The notes: generated from the sequence alone by a model not told the origin. 64,000 nt of DNA from Clostridium sp. (GCA_012517995.1 JAAYTS010000141.1:3572-67571); one strand, 5' to 3'. Shown: positions 34,958-54,199, counted from the first letter of the stretch. Numbers and translations are program-made.

Positions 34958-36142
34958 ATGACAAAGCGACAAGAAGTTGATTCTATTATTTCAGAAGTAT
35001 ACAATGCAGATGCAAAACCACCGAAGAAGAAAAAGGTTTTAAAAACTGTATTATTTATTTTTTTAGTTATTGTACTTATGGGAGGAACAGTTTTAGCAAC
35101 AACTTTTTATTATGAAAATTATATTGTGCCAGGTGACAAAAAGGTATCAATTGTAGAACCGGAAGCTGCGGATTATCCTGGTTTTATTGCAGAACAAGTA
35201 AAGACAGGGAAAATCGGCATAGATGAGGTTGAAGGTTTTTTTGATGAAAGTAATACATCTATCATTAGAAAGAAAGCAGGTTTAATTGATTTTTCTGATA
35301 AAAATCTAGAAAATAAAATTAGAGAGAAAATTGACAAAAAAACTGGGGTTATATTTGATTCAGATGTATCCCAAATAAAATCATTGGATTTTAGTGATTC
35401 TTCAATTCAAAATCTTGACGGATTGGAATTTTTAGTAAATTTAACAGAGTTAAATTTAAATAACAACTACATAAAGGATTTAAGTCCTATTGAAAAACTT
35501 ACTAATTTAGCTTATGTAAATTTATCTCAAAATCTAATAACGGATATAGATGCTTTAGAAGGAATGACCAATTTAAAGGAACTAGATTTAAGTTATAACT
35601 TTATTGATGATATAAATGCCCTAAGTAAATTAATTTCTTTAAACAGTTTAAATCTTAAGGGGAATCAAATTAAAAATATTTCTCCTTTAATTGAATTGAC
35701 TTCTTTAAAAGTTTTAATTCTTGCAGAAAATGATATTTCAGATGTAAGCTCACTTAGCAATTTATCTGATTTAATTACCCTTGAACTTAATGACAACCAG
35801 ATAACCAGTATTTATGGTTTAGATGGTTTAACCAATGTTTATGAATTGAAATTACATAATAATAAAATTGAAGATATAAGCCCACTTAGCGGATTTACAA
35901 ATTTAAGAAAATTAGACATATATAACAACTTAGTTTCAGATATAAGTGTTTTAGATAATTTTACTTTATTAGAAGAAGTGCGTGTTGAACGTAATCCTAT
36001 AAGCGATTTTGAGAGATTGAAAAAATACAAACAAATTACAGTTGAAGATGAAGAGTTTGAAGCAAATGAAGCAAGTGAATCAAATCAAGAGATTGTTGAA
36101 GTAAATGAATTAGATGAAGAAAATGAAACAGATGGAGATTAG
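34958..36142 (+). CDS. Membrane-anchored internalin-like leucine-rich repeat protein
   Basis: KKKK followed by a TM helix, an F.D..LE..IR cap, about ten 22-aa LxxLxLxxNxIxDIxxL repeats and an acidic tail. Confidence 0.9.
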   Translation: MTKRQEVDSIISEVYNADAKPPKKKKVLKTVLFIFLVIVLMGGTVLATTFYYENYIVPGDKKVSIVEPEAADYPGFIAEQVKTGKIGIDEVEGFFDESNTSIIRKKAGLIDFSDKNLENKIREKIDKKTGVIFDSDVSQIKSLDFSDSSIQNLDGLEFLVNLTELNLNNNYIKDLSPIEKLTNLAYVNLSQNLITDIDALEGMTNLKELDLSYNFIDDINALSKLISLNSLNLKGNQIKNISPLIELTSLKVLILAENDISDVSSLSNLSDLITLELNDNQITSIYGLDGLTNVYELKLHNNKIEDISPLSGFTNLRKLDIYNNLVSDISVLDNFTLLEEVRVERNPISDFERLKKYKQITVEDEEFEANEASESNQEIVEVNELDEENETDGD

Positions 36143-36159
36143 GAGTAAAGTGTTTTAAC

Positions 36160-36188
36160 GGGGCGGGGAATTTTTCTCCCGCCTCTTT
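36160..36188. terminator. GC-rich terminator between the LRR gene and bioA
   Basis: GGGGCGGGG-loop-TCCCGCCTC followed by TTT. Confidence 0.65.
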
Positions 36189-37545
36189 ATATATCTTTAA
36201 AGTACTGATTTATTGAGTCTTTACAAACCTTCACCATAAAGTCAATATCCTCATTTTCTATAATATAAGGGGGCATAAAGTATATTATGTTTCCTAATGG
36301 TCTTAAAAGAACACCTTTTTCAAGGGCTTTTTTGTATATATTGTAGCCAACTCTTTTTAAAGAGTCAAAAGGCTCTTTTGTTTTTTTATCTTTTACAAGT
36401 TCAATTGCACCTATCATGCCTATTTGACGGTATTCTCCAACTTGAGGGATGTCAAGAAGCTCTTTTTCTGCTAGTTCTTTAAGGTAAGTTTGTTTTTTTG
36501 TGTTTTTATCCAGTATTTTTTCATCTTCAAATATGTTTAAAGATTCAATTGCTACAGCACAGCCTAAGGGGTTGCCGCTATAACTGTGACTGTGTAAAAA
36601 AGCCTTCATTTTTGAATAATCATCATAAAAGGCATTATATATTTCATCTGTCATAACCACCAGGGAAAGAGGCATGTATCCTGCTGTAAGACCTTTAGAA
36701 AGACATATTATGTCTGGGGCGATACCAGCGTGTTCACAAGCAAACATTTTGCCTGTCCGTCCAAATCCAACGGCAATTTCATCTGCAATAAAGTTAATAT
36801 TGTATTTGTCGCAGAGTTTTCGAAGTTTTTTTAGGTATATAGGAGGATATATTTTCATTCCTGCTGCACATTGAACCAAAGGTTCTACAATAATAGCGCT
36901 TATTTCTTCATGGTTTTTTGAAACATCTTCTTCAATAAAGGAAAAACACTCTGCATTACAGCTGTCCCTATGTTTATTAAATTTGCAGCGGTAGCAGTCA
37001 GGACCTGTAGAACGTATAACATCAAGTAATAGAGGCTTATAAATTTTATTATATAAATCAACTCCACCAACAGAAAGTGCCCCTATAGTCTCACCATGGT
37101 AGGCATCTGTTAAAGCTACAAACCTTGTTTTTTTTGTTTTCCCAGTTTGCTGATGATATTGAAAACTTAGTTTTAATGCAATTTCAACGGCAGAAGAACC
37201 ATTATCCCCAAAAAATACTTTGTTAAGATTTTCTGGAAGTAAGCTTACAATTCTTTCTGAAAGCTCAATAGCTGGCTCATGGCTAAAGTTTGCAAAAATC
37301 ACATGTTCTAATTTATTTGCCTGTCTATATAGAGCATCATTAATGCGTTTGTGGGAGTGACCAAAAAGGTTTACCCACCAAGATGATACTGCATCTAGAT
37401 ATTTTTTGCCATTTATATCTTCTAAATAAGCACCGTTGCCCTTTTTTATAACAATGGGAGGAAAGTTTTCATAATCCTTCATCTGGGAGCAGGGGTGCCA
37501 TATATGTTTTAAGTCCTTTTCCTGTAATTTTCTCATTTTATCCAT
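36187..37545 (-). CDS. bioA: Adenosylmethionine-8-amino-7-oxononanoate aminotransferase
   Basis: [43 protein letters not shown]. Confidence 0.96.
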
Positions 37546-37578
37546 TTTTAAAAATCATCCTTTTTTTAAAATTTTGTA

Positions 37579-38280
37579 TTAAAAACACAAGTTGAGAATT
37601 TTGTTTAAATCAATATGTTCTTTGTAGCAGTTTTTTATATCTGAAAAATCATCTGTCTTTATTTGAGGCATTACACAAACTATAGGAATGCCTGTAATTT
37701 TTGCAATTATGTCTATATTATCCTTTTGGCAAAAGTCTTTAGTGTAGCCATTTATAATTATTCCTTTAATGTTAATGCCCTTATGTTTTGCAAATTCACA
37801 AGTTAGTACAGTGTGGTTTATTGTTCCAACTCCTGCCCTTGCTACAAGTAAAACAGGCAAATTTAAATCCTTTATAAGATGGTATATATAATACTTATCT
37901 CTAATAAGAGGGACTATTAAACCTCCAGCCCCTTCAACCAGTGTATAGTGATATTTTTCTTTTAAATAATTAAAGCCTTCTATTATTTTTTTTGTATCAA
38001 TTTCAACATCTTCTAATTCAGCAGCTAGATGGGGTGAAACTTCTTCCTTTAGACAGTAGCAATTCATTTTTTCATAAGGCTCATCAATAGGGACTAGTTT
38101 TTTTATAAATTCTATATCACCAGGAATAAAAGAGGTATTTTTTTTTATTCCACCAGATTGTACTGGCTTGTAGCTACAGCATTTATAATTAGCTTTTCGA
38201 AAAGAATAGTTTAGCCCTGCAGTAATAAAGGTTTTTCCTACATCTGTATCAGTTCCGGCAATAAATATTCCCTTACCCAT
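37579..38280 (-). CDS. bioD: Dethiobiotin synthetase
   Basis: GTDTDVGKT, KPVQSG, VEGAGG, GTINHT. Confidence 0.96.
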   Translation of the reverse strand: MGKGIFIAGTDTDVGKTFITAGLNYSFRKANYKCCSYKPVQSGGIKKNTSFIPGDIEFIKKLVPIDEPYEKMNCYCLKEEVSPHLAAELEDVEIDTKKIIEGFNYLKEKYHYTLVEGAGGLIVPLIRDKYYIYHLIKDLNLPVLLVARAGVGTINHTVLTCEFAKHKGINIKGIIINGYTKDFCQKDNIDIIAKITGIPIVCVMPQIKTDDFSDIKNCYKEHIDLNKILNLCF

Positions 38281-38330
38281 TTTCTACAACCCTCCTTATC
38301 TAAATTTGAATTTTTAAACATTAAAATTTT

Positions 38331-39311
38331 CTATATGCTAAAACCTGCTTCTATTATCATGGCTTTATCTTTTTTTACATCACTTCCTGTTGTAGTGAGG
38401 TAATTGCCAGTTAGTGCTGCATTTATTCCTGCCCTAAAACCAAGGGCTTGTTTGTCTTTTAACGCCATTCTGCCACCTGCATATCTAATGTAGCAGTCTT
38501 TTAGTATAAATCTATAAACAGCCATGGTTTTTAAAATCTCCATAGGTGATAATACTTCTAAATTTTCGAGGGGAGTTCCTTTAATAGGGGTTAACACATT
38601 TACAGGTATTGATTTTATACCAAGGTTCTTTATTTCAAAGGCCATATTTATTCTGTCTTCCAAACTTTCACCCATGCCGATTATGCCCCCACAGCACACT
38701 TCTAATCCAGCTTTTTGTACATTTTCTATTGTTTTTACCCTGTCTTGATAAGTATGAGTTGTGCAGATGTTTTTATAATAGTTTTTACTTGTTTCTATAT
38801 TGTGATGGTAAGTAATAACTCCTGAATCTTTAAGTTTTTTTGCCTGCTGATAAGTTATAATGCCATGGGATGCACAAAGTTCTATATTTACATCCTTTGA
38901 AAGCCTTTTATATATTTTGGCTAATTTTTCAATATCTTCATCTTTATCAATGCCCTTTCCACTGGTGACAAGGGAAAATCTGTGAGCACCACTTTTTTTC
39001 ACTTCTAAAGCTTTTTCTAAAACTTCAGGGTATTCTAAAAGTTCATATTCTAAAACTCCTGTATTATAATGAATAGATTGGGCACAGTATTTGCAGTTTT
39101 CAGAGCATTTACCTGATTTAGCATTTAATATTGTACAAAGATCAGCCTTTTTTCCCACCAGCTTTTCACGTATTTCGTTAGCTGATTCAAATAAAACATT
39201 AAGTGTATCGGTATCCTTTTTATCTATTTTTAAAAGTTTTAAAGCTTCATCAAAAACAATATTTTCACCTTTTAAAATTCTATCCTTTAGATCCAAAATA
39301 AATTGTTTCAT
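38331..39311 (-). CDS. bioB: Biotin synthase
   Basis: Radical SAM CSENCKYC, YHHNIET, CCGGIIGMGE, RYAGGR. Confidence 0.97.
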   Translation of the reverse strand: MKQFILDLKDRILKGENIVFDEALKLLKIDKKDTDTLNVLFESANEIREKLVGKKADLCTILNAKSGKCSENCKYCAQSIHYNTGVLEYELLEYPEVLEKALEVKKSGAHRFSLVTSGKGIDKDEDIEKLAKIYKRLSKDVNIELCASHGIITYQQAKKLKDSGVITYHHNIETSKNYYKNICTTHTYQDRVKTIENVQKAGLEVCCGGIIGMGESLEDRINMAFEIKNLGIKSIPVNVLTPIKGTPLENLEVLSPMEILKTMAVYRFILKDCYIRYAGGRMALKDKQALGFRAGINAALTGNYLTTTGSDVKKDKAMIIEAGFSI

Positions 39312-39419
39312 ATTGTTATACCTCCAAATACATTTTTATTTAAAACCATTATAATAAATTATTTTTTTCTATCTTTACATAAACCCATATTGCCCAGTAA
39401 ATAAAAATACTTTTTAAAC

Positions 39420-40223
39420 TTAATCTTTAGAAATAAAGACAAATAAATTATGATAAGTTGCCAAAACCTTGTTATCTTTTCTATAATCCTTGTCATATGT
39501 ATTAATTACCTTGTCAATAAAGTTTGGATGAACAATATTTGACCTCTTTTGGCTGTTGTTTGCACCTATTTTTTTAATTGAGTAAAGAAAATCTTTACAG
39601 CAGTTAAAATATTCATATTCATAAGTCTCCATCAAAGATAGGGTGTGGCTTTTATCCAATATACCGCTGCATATTTTTTTATAATCCTTGAGGGATAAAA
39701 AGGGTTGGCTTGGATATATGGTATCTTTTATACCAAAATATGAACTTGTCTTTTCATAACATTTTTTAAGTTCTATAAAAGTGTTTTCGCCAAAGGTTGA
39801 AAAGCACATAAAACCCTTAGGTGCCAAAGTTTTAACCAGTTTTTTAAAAGTGTTTTCTAAATTATTAAACCACTGAAATGCAGCATTTGATAAAATAAGA
39901 TCAAAATCTTTATCAAAATCCATTTCTTCCACATCACCACAAATAAAACCCACCCTTGTATCTGAAATTTTAGACTTTACATGGCTTATCATGCCAGGGG
40001 CAATGTCGATGGCAGTTATATTAGAGTTTTTAAAATGCTCACATAAAGCTTTTGTGACATATCCTGTTCCACAGCCTATTTCAAGTATGTTTTTATATTG
40101 GGTTTTGGTGGACTTTATTTTTTCAATTAAAATATCCCCCATATTTTTTTGAACTTTTGCATATTTGTCATACTGTCTTGCATTTCTGCTAAATCTTCTT
40201 TTTAATTTTTCCTTATCAATCAT
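39420..40223 (-). CDS. bioC: Malonyl-ACP O-methyltransferase
   Basis: RFSRNARQYD...Q, LEIGCGTG, SNAAFQW, STFG..TF.EL. Confidence 0.93.
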   Translation of the reverse strand: MIDKEKLKRRFSRNARQYDKYAKVQKNMGDILIEKIKSTKTQYKNILEIGCGTGYVTKALCEHFKNSNITAIDIAPGMISHVKSKISDTRVGFICGDVEEMDFDKDFDLILSNAAFQWFNNLENTFKKLVKTLAPKGFMCFSTFGENTFIELKKCYEKTSSYFGIKDTIYPSQPFLSLKDYKKICSGILDKSHTLSLMETYEYEYFNCCKDFLYSIKKIGANNSQKRSNIVHPNFIDKVINTYDKDYRKDNKVLATYHNLFVFISKD

Positions 40224-40951
40224 AAACTCTCTACCTCTAGATACTTTTTAATTATTTCATAACACCTGTGAGGGTGAGTATAAAAGGGTATATGTCCTGT
40301 ATTTTGTAATTTTATTAAATTTGAATTTTTATATTTTTCTTTTATATATTCACTTGATTTATATGGGCAAATAATGTCACTGTCTCCATGTATAAGAAGA
40401 GGGGACAGGGGAAGGGGTATTTCCCTTAAATCCATAGTTTTAAGGTATTCTAAGCCACATACCAATGAATTTATATTATAGTAAGATCCAAAAAGCCTCA
40501 TTTCATCTATAAACCTTTCATAATGCCCATCTGTTTTTTCACTTTTAGAAAAAAAGTTTTTATAAAATTTATTTAAAGTGCTATCTTTATCACTTTTTAG
40601 CATATAAATCATTTTGTCTATAGTATCTTTTGACAAGAGGGTGGTGCAAAGACTGTCTTTATCATTTACAAATTTTAAAGTCCCACTTATTAAAATTAAA
40701 TTATCAATTCTTTCAAATAAAACTTTTGCTATTTCTAAAGCAACCATAGCGCCTAAAGACCAACCCATAAGGGAAAAGTTTTTTTTATCATCTATTAAAT
40801 GGAGTACTTTTTTCTTAAAACCATCAATTGAAAAAATATCTTCCCAGTCCACAAAAGTTATTTCAAAATGCTTTTCTAAAAGGCTAAATAAAGTTTTCCA
40901 GGGAAATTTACCAACGGCCCAACCTGTCAATACAACCATATGTCTTGTCAT
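40220..40951 (-). CDS. bioH: Pimeloyl-ACP methyl ester esterase (BioH-like alpha/beta hydrolase)
   Basis: GWSLG nucleophile elbow, GDSD Asp and TGH His; overlaps bioC within the bio operon. Confidence 0.75.
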   Translation of the reverse strand: MTRHMVVLTGWAVGKFPWKTLFSLLEKHFEITFVDWEDIFSIDGFKKKVLHLIDDKKNFSLMGWSLGAMVALEIAKVLFERIDNLILISGTLKFVNDKDSLCTTLLSKDTIDKMIYMLKSDKDSTLNKFYKNFFSKSEKTDGHYERFIDEMRLFGSYYNINSLVCGLEYLKTMDLREIPLPLSPLLIHGDSDIICPYKSSEYIKEKYKNSNLIKLQNTGHIPFYTHPHRCYEIIKKYLEVESL

Positions 40952-40952
40952 C

Positions 40953-42119
40953 TTAAATCAACCCCAGCTTTCTTCCATTGTTTTCAAGCCTGTCTACAAC
41001 ATATTCTAAATGTTTTTTTGTATGGGCTGCTGTAATTGATATTCTTAGCCTGCTGGTGCCCCTTGGTACTGTAGGAGGTCTTATTGCTGGAATATATATC
41101 CCATCATTAAAAAGATGCTGGGAAAATTCCAATGTCTTTTTTTCATCTCCCACAATTACTGGTATTATTGGAGTTATTGTGTTAGGAATTTTAAAGCCTA
41201 GGGACTTAAGCTGATTTTTAAGCCAGTCTGAATTTTTTAAAAGCTGCTCCCTTTTTTTTGGTTGATTTTTTATAATATCAAGAGCTTTAATAGAGGCTGC
41301 AACTGATGAGGGGGGAAGGGCTGTTGAAAAAACAAAACTTCTAGAAAAATTTTTAAAATATTCAATAAAGTATTCATCTGAAGCAGCATAACCTCCTATT
41401 GAACCTACAGCCTTGCTTAATGTTCCCATGTGAATGTGAATTTCATCACTTACTCCTAAATAAGAGGCAGTACCAGCACCGTCCTTTCCTAAAACCCCAA
41501 ATCCATGAGCATCATCAACCATTGTGACAACATTGTGTTTTTTTGAAATATCCACAATATCATCTAAGGGGGCAATATCCCCATCCATGCTAAATACCCC
41601 GTCTGTGACAATTAAATTGTACTTTCCTTTAAAATTTTTTATCTTATAGGACAAATCATCCATATCACAATGCTTATATCTTAAAAGCTTAGCACCGCTT
41701 AAAAGACAGCCGTCTATAATACTTGCATGATTGTATTTATCGCAAAATATAACCCAGTCTTTATTGCAAAGAGCCTGTAAAATTCCTAAATTGGCCATAT
41801 AGCCTGTATTAAATACCAAGGCTTTTTGAGTATTTTTAAAATCTTTGATTTTTTCCTCAAGCTCATGGGTTAATATATATGAACCTGTTGTAAGCCTTGA
41901 ACCTCCTGCGCCCACCCCATACTTTTCCACTGCTTTTATAGAGGCTTTTTTTACATCTGTATCACCACAAAGGCCTAAATAATTGTTTGAGCCTAATAAA
42001 ATTATTTCTCTGCCATCTATAATAACTTTTTCTTTTTGGGATGTTTGAAGGTTTTTAAATTGCCCTCTGTATATGTTGTTATCCTTTAAAGAAAATAAAA
42101 TATCTTTTATATGTTCCAA
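40953..42119 (-). CDS. bioF: 8-amino-7-oxononanoate synthase
   Basis: GSNNYLGL, GAGGSRL, NHASIIDG, DGVFSMDGD, DDAHG, GTLSKA. Confidence 0.96.
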   Translation of the reverse strand: MEHIKDILFSLKDNNIYRGQFKNLQTSQKEKVIIDGREIILLGSNNYLGLCGDTDVKKASIKAVEKYGVGAGGSRLTTGSYILTHELEEKIKDFKNTQKALVFNTGYMANLGILQALCNKDWVIFCDKYNHASIIDGCLLSGAKLLRYKHCDMDDLSYKIKNFKGKYNLIVTDGVFSMDGDIAPLDDIVDISKKHNVVTMVDDAHGFGVLGKDGAGTASYLGVSDEIHIHMGTLSKAVGSIGGYAASDEYFIEYFKNFSRSFVFSTALPPSSVAASIKALDIIKNQPKKREQLLKNSDWLKNQLKSLGFKIPNTITPIIPVIVGDEKKTLEFSQHLFNDGIYIPAIRPPTVPRGTSRLRISITAAHTKKHLEYVVDRLENNGRKLGLI

Positions 42120-42176
42120 AATATCCCCCTACTTAAATTACAATAATACAATTATAAAATATAACAATAAAAAAAG

Positions 42177-42210
42177 ATTGTCAACTAAATTTTAAAAACA
42201 GGTTGACAAT
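42177..42210. promoter_or_regulatory. BirA (biotin repressor) operator overlapping divergent promoters
   Basis: Perfect ATTGTCAAC-N16-GTTGACAAT, fitting the Firmicutes BirA consensus TGTnAAC-N14-16-GTTnACA. Each half-site holds a TTGACA; on the + strand TTGACA-N17-GATAAT points at acp-fabF. Confidence 0.85.
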
Positions 42211-42309
42211 ACAAAGTTCTTTAAAGATAATATAGTTTGAAAACACTATAAAACTTTTGCTTTTAAATTTTAAAAATTAAATAGGTACTCTAGGGTAGGA
42301 GGTTTTTTT

Positions 42310-42540
42310 ATGGTATTTCATGAAGTTAAAAAAATATTAATAGATGTTATGGGATTGTTAGAAGATGAAGTTTCTTTAAAAAGTCATCTTTATGATGAAC
42401 TAGATGCAGACTCCCTTGACATATCCCAGATAGTTTTGGCATTAGACAACAAATATAAAATAGATATTGATGAGGTGGCGGCTTTAAATTTTAAAACTGT
42501 AGAGGATATTGTAAAATACGTGGAAGGACAGATTAAATGA
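42310..42540 (+). CDS. Acyl carrier protein (probably a paralog)
   Basis: 76 aa with DADSLD phosphopantetheine site and TVEDIV; RBS AGGAGG. Confidence 0.9.
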   Translation: MVFHEVKKILIDVMGLLEDEVSLKSHLYDELDADSLDISQIVLALDNKYKIDIDEVAALNFKTVEDIVKYVEGQIK

Positions 42541-43769
42541 AAAAAAGAGTTGTTGTAACAGGCCTTGGCGCAGTTACTCCTATTGGCAATAATGTAGGGG
42601 ATTTTTGGAATAATGTGAAAAAAGGTGTTTGTGGCATTGATTATCCTTCTCTTTTTGATGGAAAAAATTCAAAGGCAAAATTTTTTGCAGAAATAAAGAA
42701 CTTAAAATTAGAAGATCATTTTAGTAAAAAACAAATTTTAAGGACGGATCGTTTTTGTCAAATTGGCATAATTGCAGCAAAAGAAGCATTTAATGATGCA
42801 GGGCTTTATGGTACTGATATTGACAAAAAAAGACTTGGTGTTGTAATGGGAAACGGAGTAGGGGGAATAAACACCATAATCCAGGAAACACTTAATTTAC
42901 ACAGTGGCGGAATGAACATGGTTTCACCTCTTTTAGTTCCTAAATCCCTTTCAAATATTTTAGCTGGAAGCATATCTATAGAATTTGGTGCAAAAGCTAT
43001 ATCTAATGCTGTTATAACAGCATGTGCAGCTGGAACAAATGCAATAGGTGAAGCATTTAGAAATATACAATATGGTGATGCAGACATAGTTATATGTGGT
43101 GGAAGTGAGGCTTGTATAAATCCTCTTATGGTGGCAGGCTTTACAAACATGAATGCACTGAGTTTAAGTGATGATAAGCTCCGTTCTTCTATACCCTTTG
43201 ACAGGGAAAGAAGCGGTTTTGTAATGGGTGAGGGAGCAGGAGTTTTAATATTAGAAGAATACTCACATGCAATAAGAAGAAAGGCAAAAATCTATGCTGA
43301 AGTTGTTGGATATGGATTTACTTGTGATGCATATCATCTCACAGCTCCAGCACCTTTAGGGGAAGGTGCCCAAAGGGCAATGAATTTAGCCCTGCAAGAT
43401 GCCTCAATGAGCCCTTCTGATATTTCATACATAAATGCACATGGAACTTCTACAGTTTTAAATGATAAGTATGAGACTATGGCTATAAAAAAGGTTTTTG
43501 GAGAATTGGCATACAGTATTCCGGTAAATTCCACCAAATCCATGATAGGTCATCTTTTGGGTGCAGCGGGTGCTGTAGAAGCTATAGTGTGTATAAAATC
43601 AATAGAAGATGGTTTCATTCATGAGACTTTAGGTTATAGGAAAAAGGATATAGAATGTGATTTAGACTATGTGGCAGATGGAGGAAGAGAAAAAGAGGTA
43701 AGTGGAGTTTTGTCAAATTCTTTTGGCTTTGGGGGTCACAACGCTTCCATTATTTTTAAAAAAGCATAA
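42537..43769 (+). CDS. fabF: Beta-ketoacyl-ACP synthase II
   Basis: RVVVTGLG, TACAAG (Cys), NAHGTST (His), GHLLGAAG (His), NSFGFGG; ATGA overlap with acp. Confidence 0.95.
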   Translation: MKKRVVVTGLGAVTPIGNNVGDFWNNVKKGVCGIDYPSLFDGKNSKAKFFAEIKNLKLEDHFSKKQILRTDRFCQIGIIAAKEAFNDAGLYGTDIDKKRLGVVMGNGVGGINTIIQETLNLHSGGMNMVSPLLVPKSLSNILAGSISIEFGAKAISNAVITACAAGTNAIGEAFRNIQYGDADIVICGGSEACINPLMVAGFTNMNALSLSDDKLRSSIPFDRERSGFVMGEGAGVLILEEYSHAIRRKAKIYAEVVGYGFTCDAYHLTAPAPLGEGAQRAMNLALQDASMSPSDISYINAHGTSTVLNDKYETMAIKKVFGELAYSIPVNSTKSMIGHLLGAAGAVEAIVCIKSIEDGFIHETLGYRKKDIECDLDYVADGGREKEVSGVLSNSFGFGGHNASIIFKKA

Positions 43770-43851
43770 TAAAAAAACAAATTAATGGTTAAACTATTTT
43801 TATCTTTTATTAATAAAAATGGCATATAAAATATATCTAAAGGAGATAAAA

Positions 43852-44841
43852 ATGGGAACCATTAGACATGAATCTAGAACTGATTATTTAAAATTTAATT
43901 TTAATTATAATACTGCCCCTGAGATTAAGTTGATAGAGTTTGAACTTAAAGATGTACTTTCAGACAGCAAAGGGGAGATACGTAAAATGTGCACAAGTGT
44001 TTTAAATGCTGGTGGAAAGAGAATAAGACCTTTACTTACTATGTACAGTGGACTTGTTTTTTCACCTGCAAATAAAGAAATGATAAGGGGAGCTGTTTCA
44101 GTAGAATTAATTCATATGGCATCCCTTGTCCACGATGATATTATAGACAATTCAAATTTAAGAAGAAATAAGCCTTCTGTCAACAGTTTATGGGGTAATC
44201 ACTTTGCAGTTTTGTGCGGAGATTATCTGTTTTCAAAAGCCTTTGGAATTTTATCTAAATTAAACAGTTCAAGATGTATGGATTTAATGGTACAATCCAT
44301 TGAAAATATGTGTCATGGTGAGATTTTACAAGCAGATAACAAATACAATTTAGATATGGATATTGACACCTACTATGAGATAATTTCTAAAAAAACAGGG
44401 ATTTTAATTGAAAATAGCTGCAAAATGGGTGCAATTATATCAGGCACAGGGAAAAAGTATGAAGAGGCAATGGGAGGATACGGTTTAAATATTGGTTTGG
44501 CATTTCAAATAATAGACGACATATTGGATATATGCGGAAAAACAAATGAAATGGGAAAACCTAAATTTGAGGACATAAGCCAGGGAAATATAACACTTCC
44601 TATGATTATTTTATTAAAAAACAAAAAATACAGAGAAGTTGTAAAAAATATTCTAAAAAGAAAGGAAGATTTAAAAAGTATAGGAATGATGCTTATGGAT
44701 TTAAATATTATAAACACTTGTTTTGACATTGCAGAAGGGCACATAAAAAAAGCCAAAAGTTATTTATCTTTTTTGCCCCAGTCAGAATACACCCAAAAAC
44801 TATACAGCCTTGCAGATTTGCTTATGATAAGGGCAAATTAA
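43852..44841 (+). CDS. Long-chain trans-polyprenyl diphosphate synthase (HepT/IspB-like)
   Basis: GGKRIRP, first Asp-rich motif ASLVHDDIID..RR (small residues at -5/-4), KTG, FQIIDDILD; ATG at 43852 after AAGGAG. Confidence 0.9.
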   Translation: MGTIRHESRTDYLKFNFNYNTAPEIKLIEFELKDVLSDSKGEIRKMCTSVLNAGGKRIRPLLTMYSGLVFSPANKEMIRGAVSVELIHMASLVHDDIIDNSNLRRNKPSVNSLWGNHFAVLCGDYLFSKAFGILSKLNSSRCMDLMVQSIENMCHGEILQADNKYNLDMDIDTYYEIISKKTGILIENSCKMGAIISGTGKKYEEAMGGYGLNIGLAFQIIDDILDICGKTNEMGKPKFEDISQGNITLPMIILLKNKKYREVVKNILKRKEDLKSIGMMLMDLNIINTCFDIAEGHIKKAKSYLSFLPQSEYTQKLYSLADLLMIRAN

Positions 44842-44869
44842 TAAGTTTAAAATATTAAGGTATTTAAAA

Positions 44870-45931
44870 TCACAATAATTTCAAGTGCCTTAATATTTTG
44901 CACATTCTGTGATAAAAGACAGTATTACGCCCTCCTTGTTTTATAATGTTTGTGCTTACTTTTTTATTGTATTTTAAAAAAGCTTTTGAATCTGATAAAT
45001 ACATGGCTAGAAGGCCTTTTACCACAGTTTTATGAAATAGGGGATATTTTAAAGTGTCGCACATTTCTAAAGATTTTTTTGCAAAAAATATTATTCTGTC
45101 TTCACACGTTTTTATGTCTTTATAATAAAAGGTGAAGTTTAGTTGTTTTTCTTCTAAATCTTCCATATAGTCAATGTAATAGTCTAATAAAATATGAAGT
45201 CCACAAATCCAAGGGAAATAAGCCCTATCTAAAGATAAAAAATCAGCATCTTTAAAATGGGGATTATGAGATGCGGCATACATGGCGAAAATCCCTAAAG
45301 TAGAGCCTGTTGCAGCTGAAAATTCCCACAAGCTTATTTTAGGATAGTCTTTTAAGTACTTTTCACCCCAGTTTTTTAAATAATTTTCTCTTATATCAGG
45401 CTCAAGATGTTTGTAGGTTTGTAAATTTGAATACCAATTCACATATTTTTTTATGTAAGGGAGTGCTTTTTCATATGAATGTAGGTTTAATAGGGAAGAC
45501 CTGCACTGGGCAACAAGATAATGCAGGTATTTGTTATCCTCTTTTATAGGATAATATTTATAATAATCCCCTAAAAAAGATGAAGTATCTATGGCATCGT
45601 AAAGGGATAAATGAAGCTGGCGAAAAGCATTTTCATCTATAGTTTGGGTTTTATCACAAAGATTATCAAGGTAGTCGCTTATTGTTTGTAATGCACAAAT
45701 AAATTGTATTGTTAAGATAAAATCAGCATCTGGGTGCAGGGCATAGACACTGCCACCTATGCAGTGAAAACTTTTGGCAGATATACTCAAAAGCCCTTGT
45801 TTTTTAAGCTCATTATCCTTAAAAGTTTTTAATTTATTCTTATAACCTTCAAGTTTTTCTTTGACTTCAGGGAATACGTAGGTTATATATTTTAAAATTA
45901 GCTTTAATCCGCTATTGTATTTAGTTTTTAT
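44870..45931 (-). CDS. YtpB/DUF2600-family tetraprenyl-beta-curcumene synthase-like terpene synthase, probable ATA start
   Basis: ELKKQGLLSISAKSFHCIGG, QTISDYLDNLCD, FSAATGSTLG, LHILLDYYID. The frame stays open 47 codons upstream of the tracked TTG to an ATA 8 nt after GGAGG. Confidence 0.88.
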   Translation of the reverse strand: MKTKYNSGLKLILKYITYVFPEVKEKLEGYKNKLKTFKDNELKKQGLLSISAKSFHCIGGSVYALHPDADFILTIQFICALQTISDYLDNLCDKTQTIDENAFRQLHLSLYDAIDTSSFLGDYYKYYPIKEDNKYLHYLVAQCRSSLLNLHSYEKALPYIKKYVNWYSNLQTYKHLEPDIRENYLKNWGEKYLKDYPKISLWEFSAATGSTLGIFAMYAASHNPHFKDADFLSLDRAYFPWICGLHILLDYYIDYMEDLEEKQLNFTFYYKDIKTCEDRIIFFAKKSLEMCDTLKYPLFHKTVVKGLLAMYLSDSKAFLKYNKKVSTNIIKQGGRNTVFYHRMCKILRHLKLL

Positions 45932-46055
45932 TAAAAAAACCTCCTTGTGTAGTTAATATTACTTTTTTATTTTTCCCATATTTTACGCATTTTATTATAA
46001 ACCTTAAGAATATAAATAAATAGAATTGCCAAAACAAAGGGTGGGCTTATTTAAT

Positions 46056-47030
46056 ATGGTTATAAATTTATCAAAGTTTAGGACAAAAGTTTTGTTTTGT
46101 ATAATTATAATAGTTGTATTATCATTTGGAATTTCTATAGTTTTTAGCTGGGAAGTGCTAAATGATAATGAATCAAAGATTTTAGACAGTGAATTTAGTT
46201 TATATGAAAGAACAATGAAAAGGGATATTTTGTCCTTGATGATGGCCTATCCTGAACATATAACAGGCGTCAAAAAAAGGGATGACGGAAAGGTTTACAT
46301 TGTAATGAATTCGGGAAATGAGATAATTTATGACGATGGAGTGGCAAAAAGTTTTAGTGAAAAAATTTATAATGGAGATCTTCAGGATATGTTAGAAGAT
46401 ATATATCCCTTATGGGATACTCATAAGATAATGGAGAAGAATATAGACCCAGGCCGTATTAGAGTGTACAGCTTACTTAAAGAAGTATATGGGGATTCAG
46501 AAAAAAAGGTGAGTTCAAATCTTGAAAATGTATTTATAGGGGGAAGTGCTTTTGCATTTAATAAAAGCAATAATGCTTCAAAATCACTTAAAAAGGCTAT
46601 TGACGAAACTTATGAATTACTTAAAGTAAAGCCTGAGATTTATCAACATATATTACCTGCCAATGGAACTTATAACTATCGTTTTATTGCAGGCACTAAT
46701 TTACTTAGCCCTCATGCTTTTGCAATTGCAGTGGATTTAAAAAGCGACAGCAGGGATTATTGGAAATGGGCAACACCAGAGCAGGCAGAGGAAAGACTTA
46801 ATAGTTATCCACGAGATGTTGTGAAAATATTTGAAAAAAACAATTTTATATGGGGAGGTAAATGGTCTCATTTTGACATACTTCATTTTGAATACAGACC
46901 TGAAATAATAATAAAATCAAGATACTTTATAGAAGCACATGAAATAATTGAGCCTTGGTATTATGGCTATCCAGTGGATAATGAAGATGTTTTAGGATAT
47001 ATAAAAATAATTGAAGAAGCCCTAGATTAA
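46056..47030 (+). CDS. M15-family Zn peptidase (cell-wall carboxy/endopeptidase), membrane-anchored
   Basis: N-terminal TM; SPHAFAIAVD, WGGKW.HFD.LHFEYRPE. Confidence 0.85.
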   Translation: MVINLSKFRTKVLFCIIIIVVLSFGISIVFSWEVLNDNESKILDSEFSLYERTMKRDILSLMMAYPEHITGVKKRDDGKVYIVMNSGNEIIYDDGVAKSFSEKIYNGDLQDMLEDIYPLWDTHKIMEKNIDPGRIRVYSLLKEVYGDSEKKVSSNLENVFIGGSAFAFNKSNNASKSLKKAIDETYELLKVKPEIYQHILPANGTYNYRFIAGTNLLSPHAFAIAVDLKSDSRDYWKWATPEQAEERLNSYPRDVVKIFEKNNFIWGGKWSHFDILHFEYRPEIIIKSRYFIEAHEIIEPWYYGYPVDNEDVLGYIKIIEEALD

Positions 47031-52447: not shown

Positions 52448-52476
52448 TTGAAGCTTTCCACCAGATGTTATATAAT
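52448..52476 (+). promoter_or_regulatory. Sigma-A promoter of the dockerin gene
   Basis: TTGAAG-N17-TATAAT. Confidence 0.55.
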
Positions 52477-52510
52477 ATTAATTAACAATAATCTGTACGA
52501 GGTATTATAT

Positions 52511-54199
52511 ATGAAAAAAGTTTTATCCATTCTCTTAATTGTTTTCCTGCTAACAACTATGAGAAACTTTGTCACAGCAACAAATACACCTGAACAATAT
52601 ATATGGAATGCTGGTGTGGAAGGTGGAATTTTTGATGTGGCCAATGTGGTAAATGTATTGGATTTTGGTGCTAAAGGTGATGGTGTGACAGATGATTACC
52701 AAGCCTTTAATGCTGCTATCTCAGCGGTTACTGACGGTGGCGGGGTATTTGTACCAGAGGGGAAATACCTGATAAAATCAATGTTATCTTTTAATAAGCC
52801 TGTTGTACTTCGGGGAGAGGGTGCAGATAAAACTCATCTTTTAATAGACCATAATTCAAACGCCTTTGAAATTATAACTTACAAAAGAGGTGCTTGGTCA
52901 AAACTTGTTGGTGGATTTACAAAGGGTTCAAACCAACTTTTAGTAGAGAATGGGCCATCTTTTAAGTCTGGTCAATATGTAGAAATACAGCAGGATAACG
53001 ACAAAGATGTTATGTATACTTTACCAGATTGGAATGTAAATTGGGCAGAAGGTGCAATAGGACAAATTGCAAAAATAGTATCTGTTGAGGGAAATACTCT
53101 CATAATAGACAATCCTTTAAAGTATGATTATAAACAACATTTAAATCCTGTAATTAGAACCCAAGGACTAGTAGAATATGTTGGTTTTGAAAATTTTTCA
53201 GTGGAAAGGCTTGATAGAAGTGATACAAGTATATTTTATTTTAAAAATGCTGCCAACTGCTGGGTAAAAAATGTTCATAGCAAACGGGCAAGAAAGTGCC
53301 ATGTACATGTAAATACAGGATATGGTATAGAAATAAGAGATAGCTTTTTTGATGATGCCACTGACTGGAGTGGCGGAGGTCATGGATATGGGGTACAGCT
53401 TGGACTACATTCTACAAACTGCCTTATTGAAAACAATATATTTAAACATTTAAGACATTCCATGATGGCTCAGCTTGGTTCAAATGGCAATGTTTTTGGA
53501 TATAACTATTCTATAGAGCCTTACCAAAGCGAGGGTGGCAACTGGACACCTGCAGATATTTCACTTCATGGGCACTACCCCCATGCAAATCTTTTTGAAG
53601 GAAATATAGTTCAGAAAATAACTGTATCAGACTATTGGGGACCTTCAGGACCGAATACATTTTTGCGTAATAGAATAGAATCTGAAGGAATTAAAGTTGA
53701 AGACTCTTCAAACTTTCAAAGGTTTTTAGGAAATGAATTGGTAAAGGGAAGTATATTATGGGATACAGACAGCCGTTATCCTCATTTAATAGATTCTTCT
53801 ACCATTTTAAGACATGGCAATTATATTAATGGCTCAATTGAATGGGATGAAAAAACACCTTATCAAAACATACCAATTTCATACTATCATAATTCAAAGC
53901 CATCTTTTTATAAGTCTTTACAATGGCCTTCAATAGGTGCAGACAGGTTGAATGGAACAAATCCTGCAAAAGAAAGATATTTAAATAAAGATATATTATA
54001 TGGGGATTTAAATGGTGATAATATAGTTAATTCTCTTGACTGTGTGCTCCTTGGAAGATTTCTTTTAGAAATTATAAATGATTTTCCAAACCTTAATGGC
54101 ATAAATGCAGCAGATTTAAATAAAGATGGAATAATAAACTCTGTGGATTATACTTTATTGAGTAGGTATGTTTTAGGTGTTATTGATAATTTAAATTAG
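52511..54199 (+). CDS. Cellulosomal protein: right-handed beta-helix (pectate lyase 3/GH55-like) domain plus C-terminal type I dockerin
   Basis: Signal peptide; VNVLDFGAKGDGVTDD start, beta-helix-type repeats, and two dockerin Ca-binding loops (YGDLNGDNIVNSLD, ADLNKDGIINSVD). Confidence 0.9.
   Translation: MKKVLSILLIVFLLTTMRNFVTATNTPEQYIWNAGVEGGIFDVANVVNVLDFGAKGDGVTDDYQAFNAAISAVTDGGGVFVPEGKYLIKSMLSFNKPVVLRGEGADKTHLLIDHNSNAFEIITYKRGAWSKLVGGFTKGSNQLLVENGPSFKSGQYVEIQQDNDKDVMYTLPDWNVNWAEGAIGQIAKIVSVEGNTLIIDNPLKYDYKQHLNPVIRTQGLVEYVGFENFSVERLDRSDTSIFYFKNAANCWVKNVHSKRARKCHVHVNTGYGIEIRDSFFDDATDWSGGGHGYGVQLGLHSTNCLIENNIFKHLRHSMMAQLGSNGNVFGYNYSIEPYQSEGGNWTPADISLHGHYPHANLFEGNIVQKITVSDYWGPSGPNTFLRNRIESEGIKVEDSSNFQRFLGNELVKGSILWDTDSRYPHLIDSSTILRHGNYINGSIEWDEKTPYQNIPISYYHNSKPSFYKSLQWPSIGADRLNGTNPAKERYLNKDILYGDLNGDNIVNSLDCVLLGRFLLEIINDFPNLNGINAADLNKDGIINSVDYTLLSRYVLGVIDNLN

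Follow-up and report, generated by a model that had tools for sequence, protein, structure and literature searches.

INTRODUCTION

In the textbook account of pimelate synthesis, malonate disguised by BioC and BioH is built into pimelate by the ordinary fatty acid machinery, and the familiar example of how biotin genes are controlled is bioO of Escherichia coli, a single BirA operator lying between the divergent promoters of bioA and bioBFCD, with biotinoyl-AMP as the corepressor. We describe here a locus in a 64,000-nucleotide stretch of DNA from Clostridium sp. (GCA_012517995.1, JAAYTS010000141.1:3572-67571; the whole stretch is called the window below) in which a predicted BirA-type operator separates a biotin synthesis operon from a divergent pair of genes encoding an acyl carrier protein (ACP) and a FabF-type beta-ketoacyl-ACP synthase II (KAS II). 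We consider it probable that bioC, a bioH-like gene, bioF, acp and fabF together form a biotin-repressed, five-gene pimelate module that supplies the BioC/BioH route with a private carrier and a private condensing enzyme.

In the canonical route, the methyl ester of malonyl-ACP passes through two elongation cycles and is then de-esterified and condensed with alanine (PMC7645780). As in E. coli and in Bacillus cereus-type bio operons, BioC, a candidate esterase and BioF are present at the clostridial locus, and the chemistry is presumably the same; in the canonical model, however, housekeeping AcpP and FabB or FabF serve at every ACP-dependent step, whereas here a private ACP and FabF are coinherited with the bio genes and carry an altered docking surface. 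The duplication of a fatty acid condensing enzyme and its specialization for the pimeloyl moiety are also features of BioZ of the alphaproteobacteria (PMC7645780, PMC8024396), but BioZ is a FabH-like synthase (KAS III) with a Cys-His-Asn triad that is primed by glutaryl coenzyme A from lysine breakdown, replaces BioC and BioH, and works with the housekeeping ACP. The enzyme encoded in the window is, by contrast, a Cys-His-His KAS II found alongside BioC and a BioH-like esterase and equipped with its own ACP.

The closest precedent is the bio cluster of Desulfovibrio (DVU2558-2565), which contains genes for a specialized ACP, FabF, and FabG- and FabZ-like proteins together with a predicted BirA site, as was proposed in 2004 (PMC545781); the specialized ACP and FabF were shown in 2023, by randomly barcoded transposon sequencing, to be needed for growth without biotin, and this type of system was said to be confined to the Desulfobacterota and Chrysiogenetes (PMC10102598). 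An earlier note on the window, made from the sequence alone, had mentioned such fab-like genes in some deltaproteobacterial bio operons, correctly, and had known of no characterized clostridial case; likewise, our literature searches gave no account of Clostridia in which the BioC/BioH pathway has an ACP and a KAS II of its own. The clostridial locus resembles that of Desulfovibrio in that a second ACP and a FabF-type ketosynthase are encoded in the bio cluster of an anaerobe under a predicted BirA site. Desulfovibrio, however, lacks bioC and bioH and has ketoreductase and dehydratase-like genes of its own, implying a route free of methyl esters, whereas the clostridial module has BioC and a BioH-like esterase, with the ACP and the ketosynthase as its only Fab-type components. 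The module is a hybrid of the canonical BioC/BioH route and private machinery of the Desulfovibrio type.

With respect to control, the locus shares with bioO a single inverted repeat, suited to a BirA dimer, between two divergent biotin pathway units (for the properties of BirA, see PMC4016012). The bioO promoters face each other and overlap, whereas those predicted here stand back to back, each half-site contributing a -35 hexamer; the second unit encodes an ACP and a ketosynthase and not a late-step bio gene; and the sequence and spacing of the half-sites are of the Firmicutes type, unlike those of bioO. Fatty acid-type enzymes under a verified BirA operator are also known from a Firmicute in yhfUTS of Bacillus subtilis (PMC4016012), but these belong to other families (acyl coenzyme A ligase and thiolase), include neither an ACP nor a ketosynthase, and still have no known function.

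RESULTS

The bio genes and the divergent acp-fabF pair recur together in Clostridia

Two divergent transcription units span positions 36187 to 43769 of the window (Table 1): six minus-strand genes in the order bioF, BioH-like gene, bioC, bioB, bioD and bioA, and two plus-strand genes, acp and fabF, which overlap by 4 nt (ATGA). The operator palindrome lies in the 190-bp gap between bioF and acp, and fabF has bioF as its neighbor, not fab or acc genes. The candidate esterase resembles BioH weakly by score; its position is constant in all of the module loci.

The arrangement in which bioC, bioH and bioF are divergent from acp and fabF, with the operator between them, was found in the window and at 10 further loci (L001, L002, L081 and L082, which are two copies of one site, and L083 to L088), representing nine distinct relatives: Herbivorax, Anaerobacterium, Crassaminicella, Peptoclostridium, Wukongibacter, Anaeromicrobium, Clostridiaceae M8S5 and two metagenome contigs. 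The module thus spans at least nine genera (at least eight besides that of the source), all of them Clostridia. Homologue look-ups located it in a relative whose FabF is 86% identical, Crassaminicella thermophila, Peptoclostridium litorale, Wukongibacter, Clostridiaceae bacterium M8S5, Anaeromicrobium sediminis and a JGI metagenome contig, and a scan of genome loci for FabF relatives, covering the best 80 of 509 loci, detected bio genes plus the operator in Herbivorax (82% FabF identity) and Anaerobacterium (70%) only. The other 78 of these loci, with FabF identities of 61% or less, had neither bio genes nor the operator and were taken as housekeeping; at some of them an ACP gene lay a few kilobases upstream, as in fab clusters.

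The flanking genes differ at each module locus (flagellar genes, glutamate synthase, transporters and others), whereas the acp-fabF pair is always found with bioF-bioH-bioC and never beside fabH, fabK, fabD, fabG or acc genes in the 11 loci. Protein identities within the module range from 60 to 86% for FabF, 55 to 81% for BioF, 50 to 80% for BioC, 45 to 88% for the ACP and 31 to 79% for the esterase. No gene for FabG, FabZ, enoyl reductase, FabD or AcpS was present in the module at any locus. This pattern of gene neighborhoods supports the view that acp-fabF is a biotin pathway module rather than a chance neighbor of the bio operon. The bioB-bioD-bioA genes are appended after bioC in the Herbivorax/Anaerobacterium group only, the module elsewhere stopping at bioC, and in the window, where a 108-bp gap (39312 to 39419) with no second operator separates bioC from bioB, they appear to have been added in this lineage.

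The palindrome has the properties expected of a BirA-type operator

The palindrome is unique: no further copy was found in the 64-kb window, even when three mismatches were allowed, and its core pattern arose in none of 100 dinucleotide-preserving shuffles. Within about 20 kb, each module locus has exactly one operator-like palindrome, which invariably occupies the gap between bioF and acp, and among these loci, with FabF identities of 60 to 86%, the half-sites are conserved while the spacer drifts in sequence and varies in length from 15 to 17 nt. The published BirA consensus is TTGTnAACC-N14/15-GGTTnACAA (PMC545781), with which the window site, read as TTGTCAACt-N14-gGTTGACAA at 42178 to 42209, agrees.

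When metagenome contigs were scanned for exact copies of the palindrome, the spacer being allowed 15 to 17 nt, at least 120 loci were returned. At 78 of the 120 listed, a biotin gene reads away from the site within 700 bp (bioY in 45, bioB in 19, a biotin protein ligase gene in 10 and bioD in 4), and at least 11 others, on inspection by eye, have a BioY too diverged for the query to detect, so that about 89 of the 120 listed loci (approximately 74%) place the palindrome directly upstream of bioY, bioB, bioD or birA. The two palindrome-adjacent ligase open reading frames that were tested (L095 and L120) comprise HTH_11, BPL and BPL_C domains, as in group II BirA. Judged by these gene associations, the palindrome specifically marks the biotin regulon in Firmicutes-like genomes.

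About one in four of the listed exact matches (L101, L107, L161, L196 and others) are not beside recognizable biotin genes, and several of these adjoin GntR-family regulators in GC-rich contigs; such matches are probably due to chance, occurring as they do in unrelated and often GC-rich contigs. Five human gut metagenome contigs (L105, L120, L130, L131 and L133) carry the identical palindrome between divergent group II birA and bioY genes, an apparent case of one operator serving two divergent biotin genes with autoregulation of birA. A different coupling of biotin supply to fatty acid synthesis is seen in another metagenome contig (L090, 14454 to 15907), where a group I biotin protein ligase gene (268 amino acids, no HTH) and bioY directly follow accA in a housekeeping fab-acc cluster.

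Two back-to-back promoters are predicted to share the operator

Both half-sites carry an outward-facing TTGACA as a predicted -35 hexamer, and the acp-fabF promoter outscores every other promoter-like match in the region. Such sites as a class show no enrichment in this AT-rich stretch, 12 having been found against 10.2 expected from shuffled sequence; since the hexamers are no commoner than chance, we place weight on the palindrome and on conservation and not on the hexamers alone. On the acp side, a half-site reading TT(G/T)ACA is followed at 16 to 17 nt by a TATAAT-like hexamer in 9 of 10 related loci; the match is exact in five, weak in L086 and not clear in L088. Facing bioF, seven of the eight aligned loci have TATA(T/C)T after TTGACA, at a distance of 15 nt (16 nt in L002) and often with a TG extension. 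The layout in which the -35 hexamers overlap the operator recurs in the 11 loci, and overlap on both sides together with -10 spacing is conserved in most of them, providing strong phylogenetic footprinting, at the level of sequence, for one operator over two back-to-back promoters. An Rfam search of positions 35500 to 46500, including the acp leader, gave no credible riboswitch or other known RNA.

The earlier note had placed a BirA-type palindrome between the bio genes and acp-fabF, with a TTGACA in each half-site, a correctly spaced GATAAT facing acp-fabF and a span covering two divergent promoters. These structural claims were borne out by the analyses described above, and its assignment of the site to BirA gains support from the fit to the consensus and from the biotin genes that lie downstream of most of the listed copies.

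The linked FabF proteins form a distinct clade

In a neighbor-joining tree of 54 sequences, the biotin-linked FabF proteins form one clade with a bootstrap value of 200/200. All 10 clade members whose context was checked lie in the module, and all three of the nearest outgroups tested lie in canonical fab clusters, arranged as fabH-fabK-fabD-fabG-fabF-accB-fabZ-accCDA or fabT-fabH-acp-fabK-fabD-fabG-fabF-fabZ. The nesting of the clade among clostridial housekeeping FabF proteins indicates duplication followed by spread. Within the clade, the Herbivorax group does not have Anaerobacterium as its sister, and the proteins closest to the window FabF after those of its own genus come from other orders; these features suggest, on the evidence of the sequences, that the module spread as a cassette by horizontal transfer among anaerobic Clostridia. 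FabF identities run continuously, those of linked proteins from 86% down to 60% and those of housekeeping proteins up to 61%. A fuzzy clade boundary was considered and rejected, as the tree separates the groups cleanly and gene context agrees on both sides.

The window FabF is 54% identical to B. subtilis FabF (PDB 4LS5). Cys163, His303, His340, Lys335, Asp265 and the GFGG gate are invariant in the linked proteins, which argues that the linked FabF is an active condensing enzyme. Comparison of 48 linked with 139 housekeeping FabF sequences revealed positions at which the two groups differ. Position 128 is Arg or Lys in all 139 housekeeping proteins and is never basic in the linked set (Met in 32, Phe in 7, others in the rest; Met in the window), whereas position 136 is Lys in 48 of 48 linked proteins and Met, Thr or Leu, never Lys, in the 139. 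At position 108, which together with position 202 makes up the I108-F202 "back gate" (PMC9006962), 125 of 139 housekeeping proteins have Ile and 47 of 48 linked proteins have Val. Position 198 is Ala, Ser or Gly in housekeeping proteins and Met, Val or Ile in linked ones; position 193, otherwise varied, is Cys in 47 of 48; and position 362, Pro in housekeeping FabF, is His in all 48 linked proteins. His362 is also found in ten sequences of the housekeeping set. It is a matter of speculation that K136 and the pocket-side changes are linked to the methyl ester tail.

Charge is lost from both partners at the ACP-FabF docking surface

The ACP scores below every NCBIfam ACP cutoff (53.1 against 70.45 for TIGR00517, and 63.4 against 66 for the best model), and the DADSLD motif with its DSL serine is conserved in linked ACPs. 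A protein search with the 76-amino-acid ACP found at least 23 proteins, which confirm the signature of the family while giving no measure of its size. Position 48 is Asn in all linked ACPs except one (Lys) and Glu or Asp in all housekeeping ACPs; position 40 is Ser in linked as opposed to Val or Phe in housekeeping ACPs, and position 44 is Leu or Ile in linked ACPs. In crystal structures of the E. coli AcpP-FabF complex, Arg127, Lys128 and Arg206 contact AcpP residues Glu47, Glu48, Glu53 and Asp56 (PMC7138838). Charge has therefore gone from both sides of one salt bridge patch, from the R/K at FabF position 128 and from the E at ACP position 48, the pattern expected of a coevolved, partly orthogonal carrier-enzyme pair, and the linked ACP and FabF are probably such a pair.

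Neighboring genes, host and expression

The gene directly downstream of fabF encodes a HepT-like polyprenyl diphosphate synthase and is convergent with a gene for a DUF2600 protein. The tetraprenyl-beta-curcumene synthase YtpB of B. subtilis presumably belongs to DUF2600, and the two genes may form a C35 terpenoid pair. A search for a terminator after fabF gave a sole match, within the 3' end of the fabF coding sequence, and matches were no more numerous than expected by chance; transcriptional read-through from fabF into the polyprenyl synthase gene may occur. In the relative with 86% identity (L081), the polyprenyl synthase gene is absent and DUF2600 is broken into two open reading frames of 143 and 186 amino acids, which looks like decay. 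At the other end of the locus, a leucine-rich-repeat protein gene is convergent on bioA.

The window FabF shares 86% identity with a protein that is widespread in assemblies from biogas reactors (labeled Ruminiclostridium sp.) and 82% with the FabF of Herbivorax sp. ANBcel31. The window also contains the spoIIIA operon and a gene for a pectate lyase-like protein with a C-terminal type I dockerin, the latter indicating that the organism produces cellulosomes, and the DNA occurs in metagenomes from biogas plants, landfills and digesters. The organism therefore belongs to the Acetivibrio/Herbivorax group and is both sporulating and cellulosomal.

Metatranscriptome contigs of data set X27 cover bioA, bioF, acp and fabF at depths of 1 to 6, the leucine-rich-repeat gene being covered at a depth of about 37; data sets X25 and X26 are labeled "metagenomic" and may be DNA. 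The RNA-labeled contigs show only that both sides of the locus are transcribed somewhere. An X25 contig has 10 substitutions within 100 bp of bioF (41619 to 41717), a cluster that suggests coexisting strains or a recombined segment in that community.

Table 1. Features of the biotin locus and its surroundings, with positions counted from the first nucleotide of the window
Feature	Position	Strand	Basis or remark
Predicted BirA-type biotin operator, ATTGTCAAC-N16-GTTGACAAT	42177..42210	.	Perfect palindrome; unique in window; conserved in 11/11 module loci
Predicted acp-fabF promoter	42203..42231	+	-35 TTGACA 42203-42208 (right half-site), 17 nt, -10 GATAAT 42226-42231; 11/12 match
Predicted bio operon promoter	42156..42184	-	-35 TTGACA 42184-42179 (left half-site), then TGtTATATT at 15 nt or TATTTT at 17 nt; TATTTT option 10/12
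AGGAGG ribosome-binding site, 7 nt ahead of acp start codon	42297..42302	+	Direct sequence reading
acp, divergent acyl carrier protein, 76 aa, DSL phosphopantetheine serine present	42310..42540	+	Pfam PP-binding PF00550
fabF, FabF-type beta-ketoacyl-ACP synthase II, 410 aa, biotin-linked clade	42537..43769	+	TIGR03150, 568 bits vs 494
bioF, 8-amino-7-oxononanoate synthase	40953..42119	-	TTG start; TIGR00858, 455 bits, above cutoff
BioH-like alpha/beta hydrolase, candidate pimeloyl-ACP methyl ester esterase	40220..40951	-	TIGR01738, 89 bits vs cutoff 207
bioC, malonyl-ACP O-methyltransferase	39420..40223	-	TIGR02072, 217 vs cutoff 185
bioB, biotin synthase	38331..39311	-	TIGR00433, 406 bits, above cutoff
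bioD, dethiobiotin synthase	37579..38280	-	TIGR00347, 162 bits, above cutoff
bioA, adenosylmethionine-8-amino-7-oxononanoate transaminase	36187..37545	-	TIGR00508, 590 bits, above cutoff
Leucine-rich-repeat protein	34958..36142	+	
HepT-like polyprenyl diphosphate synthase	43819..44841	+	
DUF2600 protein	44870..45790	-	
Pectate lyase-like protein with C-terminal type I dockerin	52448..54199	+	

DISCUSSION

From the anatomy of the locus, its conservation, the FabF clade, the residue patterns and the association of the operator with biotin genes, all of which were observed, we infer binding, repression, substrates and orthogonality as follows, drawing on the known mechanism of BirA (PMC4016012) and the chemistry of BioC and BioH (PMC7645780). 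When biotin is plentiful, a dimer of group II BirA with biotinoyl-AMP would occupy the single palindrome and cover the -35 hexamers of both promoters, turning off the bio operon and acp-fabF together, and when biotin is scarce, both units would be expressed. The private ACP would be phosphopantetheinylated by housekeeping AcpS and loaded with malonate by housekeeping FabD, and BioC would then methylate malonyl-ACP. The private FabF would carry out two condensations on methyl ester intermediates, from C3 to C5 and from C5 to C7, with housekeeping FabG, FabZ and enoyl reductase providing the reductive steps, after which the BioH-like esterase would remove the methyl group and BioF would consume pimeloyl-ACP to give 7-keto-8-aminopelargonic acid. 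Because the docking surface of the ACP and FabF appears to have coevolved, the housekeeping ketosynthase probably deals poorly with the carrier on which the intermediates are held, an arrangement that would shield biotin synthesis and membrane lipid synthesis from one another.

The earlier note had gone further in proposing a dedicated pimeloyl-ACP assembly line, separate from membrane fatty acid synthesis. That description suits the carrier and the condensing enzyme, which appear to be private, but it does not extend to FabG, FabZ, enoyl reductase, FabD and AcpS, which are missing from the module and would have to be borrowed. A stronger form of the proposal, to which we give somewhat less than an even chance, is that the two proteins are a naturally orthogonal pair, in which the private ACP (N48 and S40) and the private FabF (nonbasic at 128, with K136) would recognize one another as well as BioC, the esterase and BioF, largely to the exclusion of the housekeeping FabF, and only the reductive enzymes, blind to chain length, would be shared.

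Several observations weigh against a biotin-repressed module with private machinery. No birA or biotin protein ligase gene is present within the 64-kb window, and BirA binding and the biotin response are predictions from sequence; the metatranscriptome contigs report low-level transcription of both sides and hold no biotin contrast. Neither acp nor fabF stands beside the operator at any of the 120 listed metagenome palindrome loci, and membership of acp-fabF in the regulon is rare and lacks independent replication outside the clade. The absence from the module of the other enzymes of the elongation cycle and of FabD and AcpS means that the private ACP must also suit housekeeping enzymes, which limits orthogonality, and the structural roles given to K136, V108, M198, C193 and H362 are guesses. 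Finally, there is no second acpP or fabF within the window. If these were the only ACP and FabF of the cell, repression by plentiful biotin would halt lipid synthesis just when acetyl coenzyme A carboxylase is active, which argues for a second copy. Among the best 80 of 509 genome loci, the only FabF copies belonging to Herbivorax and Anaerobacterium were those of the module, and a search seeded with the housekeeping FabF of Lutispora recovered only Lutispora and metagenome-assembled genomes, with no module-bearing species.

The same lack of another acpP or fabF in the window could be taken to mean that acp-fabF are ordinary fatty acid synthesis genes that happen to adjoin the bio operon, the operator serving bioF only and its overlap with the acp promoter being incidental, and it is true that the FabF passes the FabF equivalog model and has all of its catalytic residues. 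We regard this as extremely unlikely. Over 11 loci with unrelated flanks the pair stays beside bioF-bioH-bioC and never joins fab or acc genes; its FabF forms a separate, fully supported clade whose nearest outgroups do lie in fab clusters; an otherwise invariant docking residue (R/K128) has been lost and the ACP is divergent; the overlap with the -35 hexamer and the spacing of the -10 are conserved in nearly all loci; and for a cell to repress its sole FabF under plentiful biotin would be self-defeating. Still less credence, indeed almost none, attaches to the notion that the palindrome serves some regulator other than BirA or plays no part in regulation. The window contains no birA gene and about a quarter of the listed exact metagenome matches are not beside recognizable biotin genes, but the site agrees with the BirA consensus, close to three-quarters of those matches are directly upstream of biotin genes, group II birA among them, and the half-sites have been kept while the spacer has drifted between loci whose FabF proteins are as little as 60% and at most 86% identical.

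Two further explanations accept specialized enzymes and assign them other work. The ACP and FabF might make a different acyl product, such as a specialized lipid or a polyketide-like starter, with BirA involved only through the supply of malonyl coenzyme A by a biotinylated carboxylase. The BirA regulon of B. subtilis includes yhfT and yhfS, which are of the fatty acid type and have no known role (PMC4016012), the set of BirA targets in Clostridium ljungdahlii is broad (PMC8449670), and a polyprenyl synthase gene follows fabF with no clear terminator between them. The explanation is nevertheless quite improbable, as bioF, bioH and bioC are the sole constant partners while the genes after fabF vary in every genus, the polyprenyl synthase is missing from the relative with 86% identity, and repression by plentiful biotin has the wrong sign for a consumer of malonyl coenzyme A. 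We also think it very unlikely that FabF acts on the free acid, with Lys136 neutralizing a free omega-carboxylate and BioC and BioH being redundant or acting differently. K136 is invariant in the clade, a basic pocket residue has been proposed to accommodate the charged primer in BioZ (PMC7645780), and Desulfovibrio has a specialized ACP and FabF but neither bioC nor bioH (PMC10102598). Against this, BioC (which scores above its equivalog cutoff) and the esterase are conserved together with the ACP and FabF in 11 of 11 loci, suggesting that they act together, and the module, unlike that of Desulfovibrio, has no dedicated FabG or FabZ.

In summary, the five-gene module, with a probable role in making pimelate under the control of biotin, implies that even the BioC/BioH route does not universally borrow the fatty acid machinery. 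Three questions become testable: which condensing enzyme takes methyl ester primers, a matter that is loosely defined even in E. coli; how the specificity of an ACP for its partners is encoded, by means of a natural pair that has lost charge at FabF position 128 and ACP position 48; and why anaerobes, Desulfovibrio and now Clostridia, repeatedly evolve private biotin carriers. Databases label the two proteins generically, as "acyl carrier protein" and "beta-ketoacyl-ACP synthase II," and such labels inflate the apparent number of fatty acid genes and hide a function in biotin synthesis. An orthogonal ACP-ketosynthase pair for a C7 diacid would be attractive for the engineering of pimelate or biotin production. 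Should the pair prove to be orthogonal, pimelate intermediates would neither be overelongated into lipids nor compete with them, and these Clostridia would possess an undescribed third solution to the synthesis of pimelate, in which the BioC/BioH disguise is combined with a dedicated carrier and condensing enzyme.

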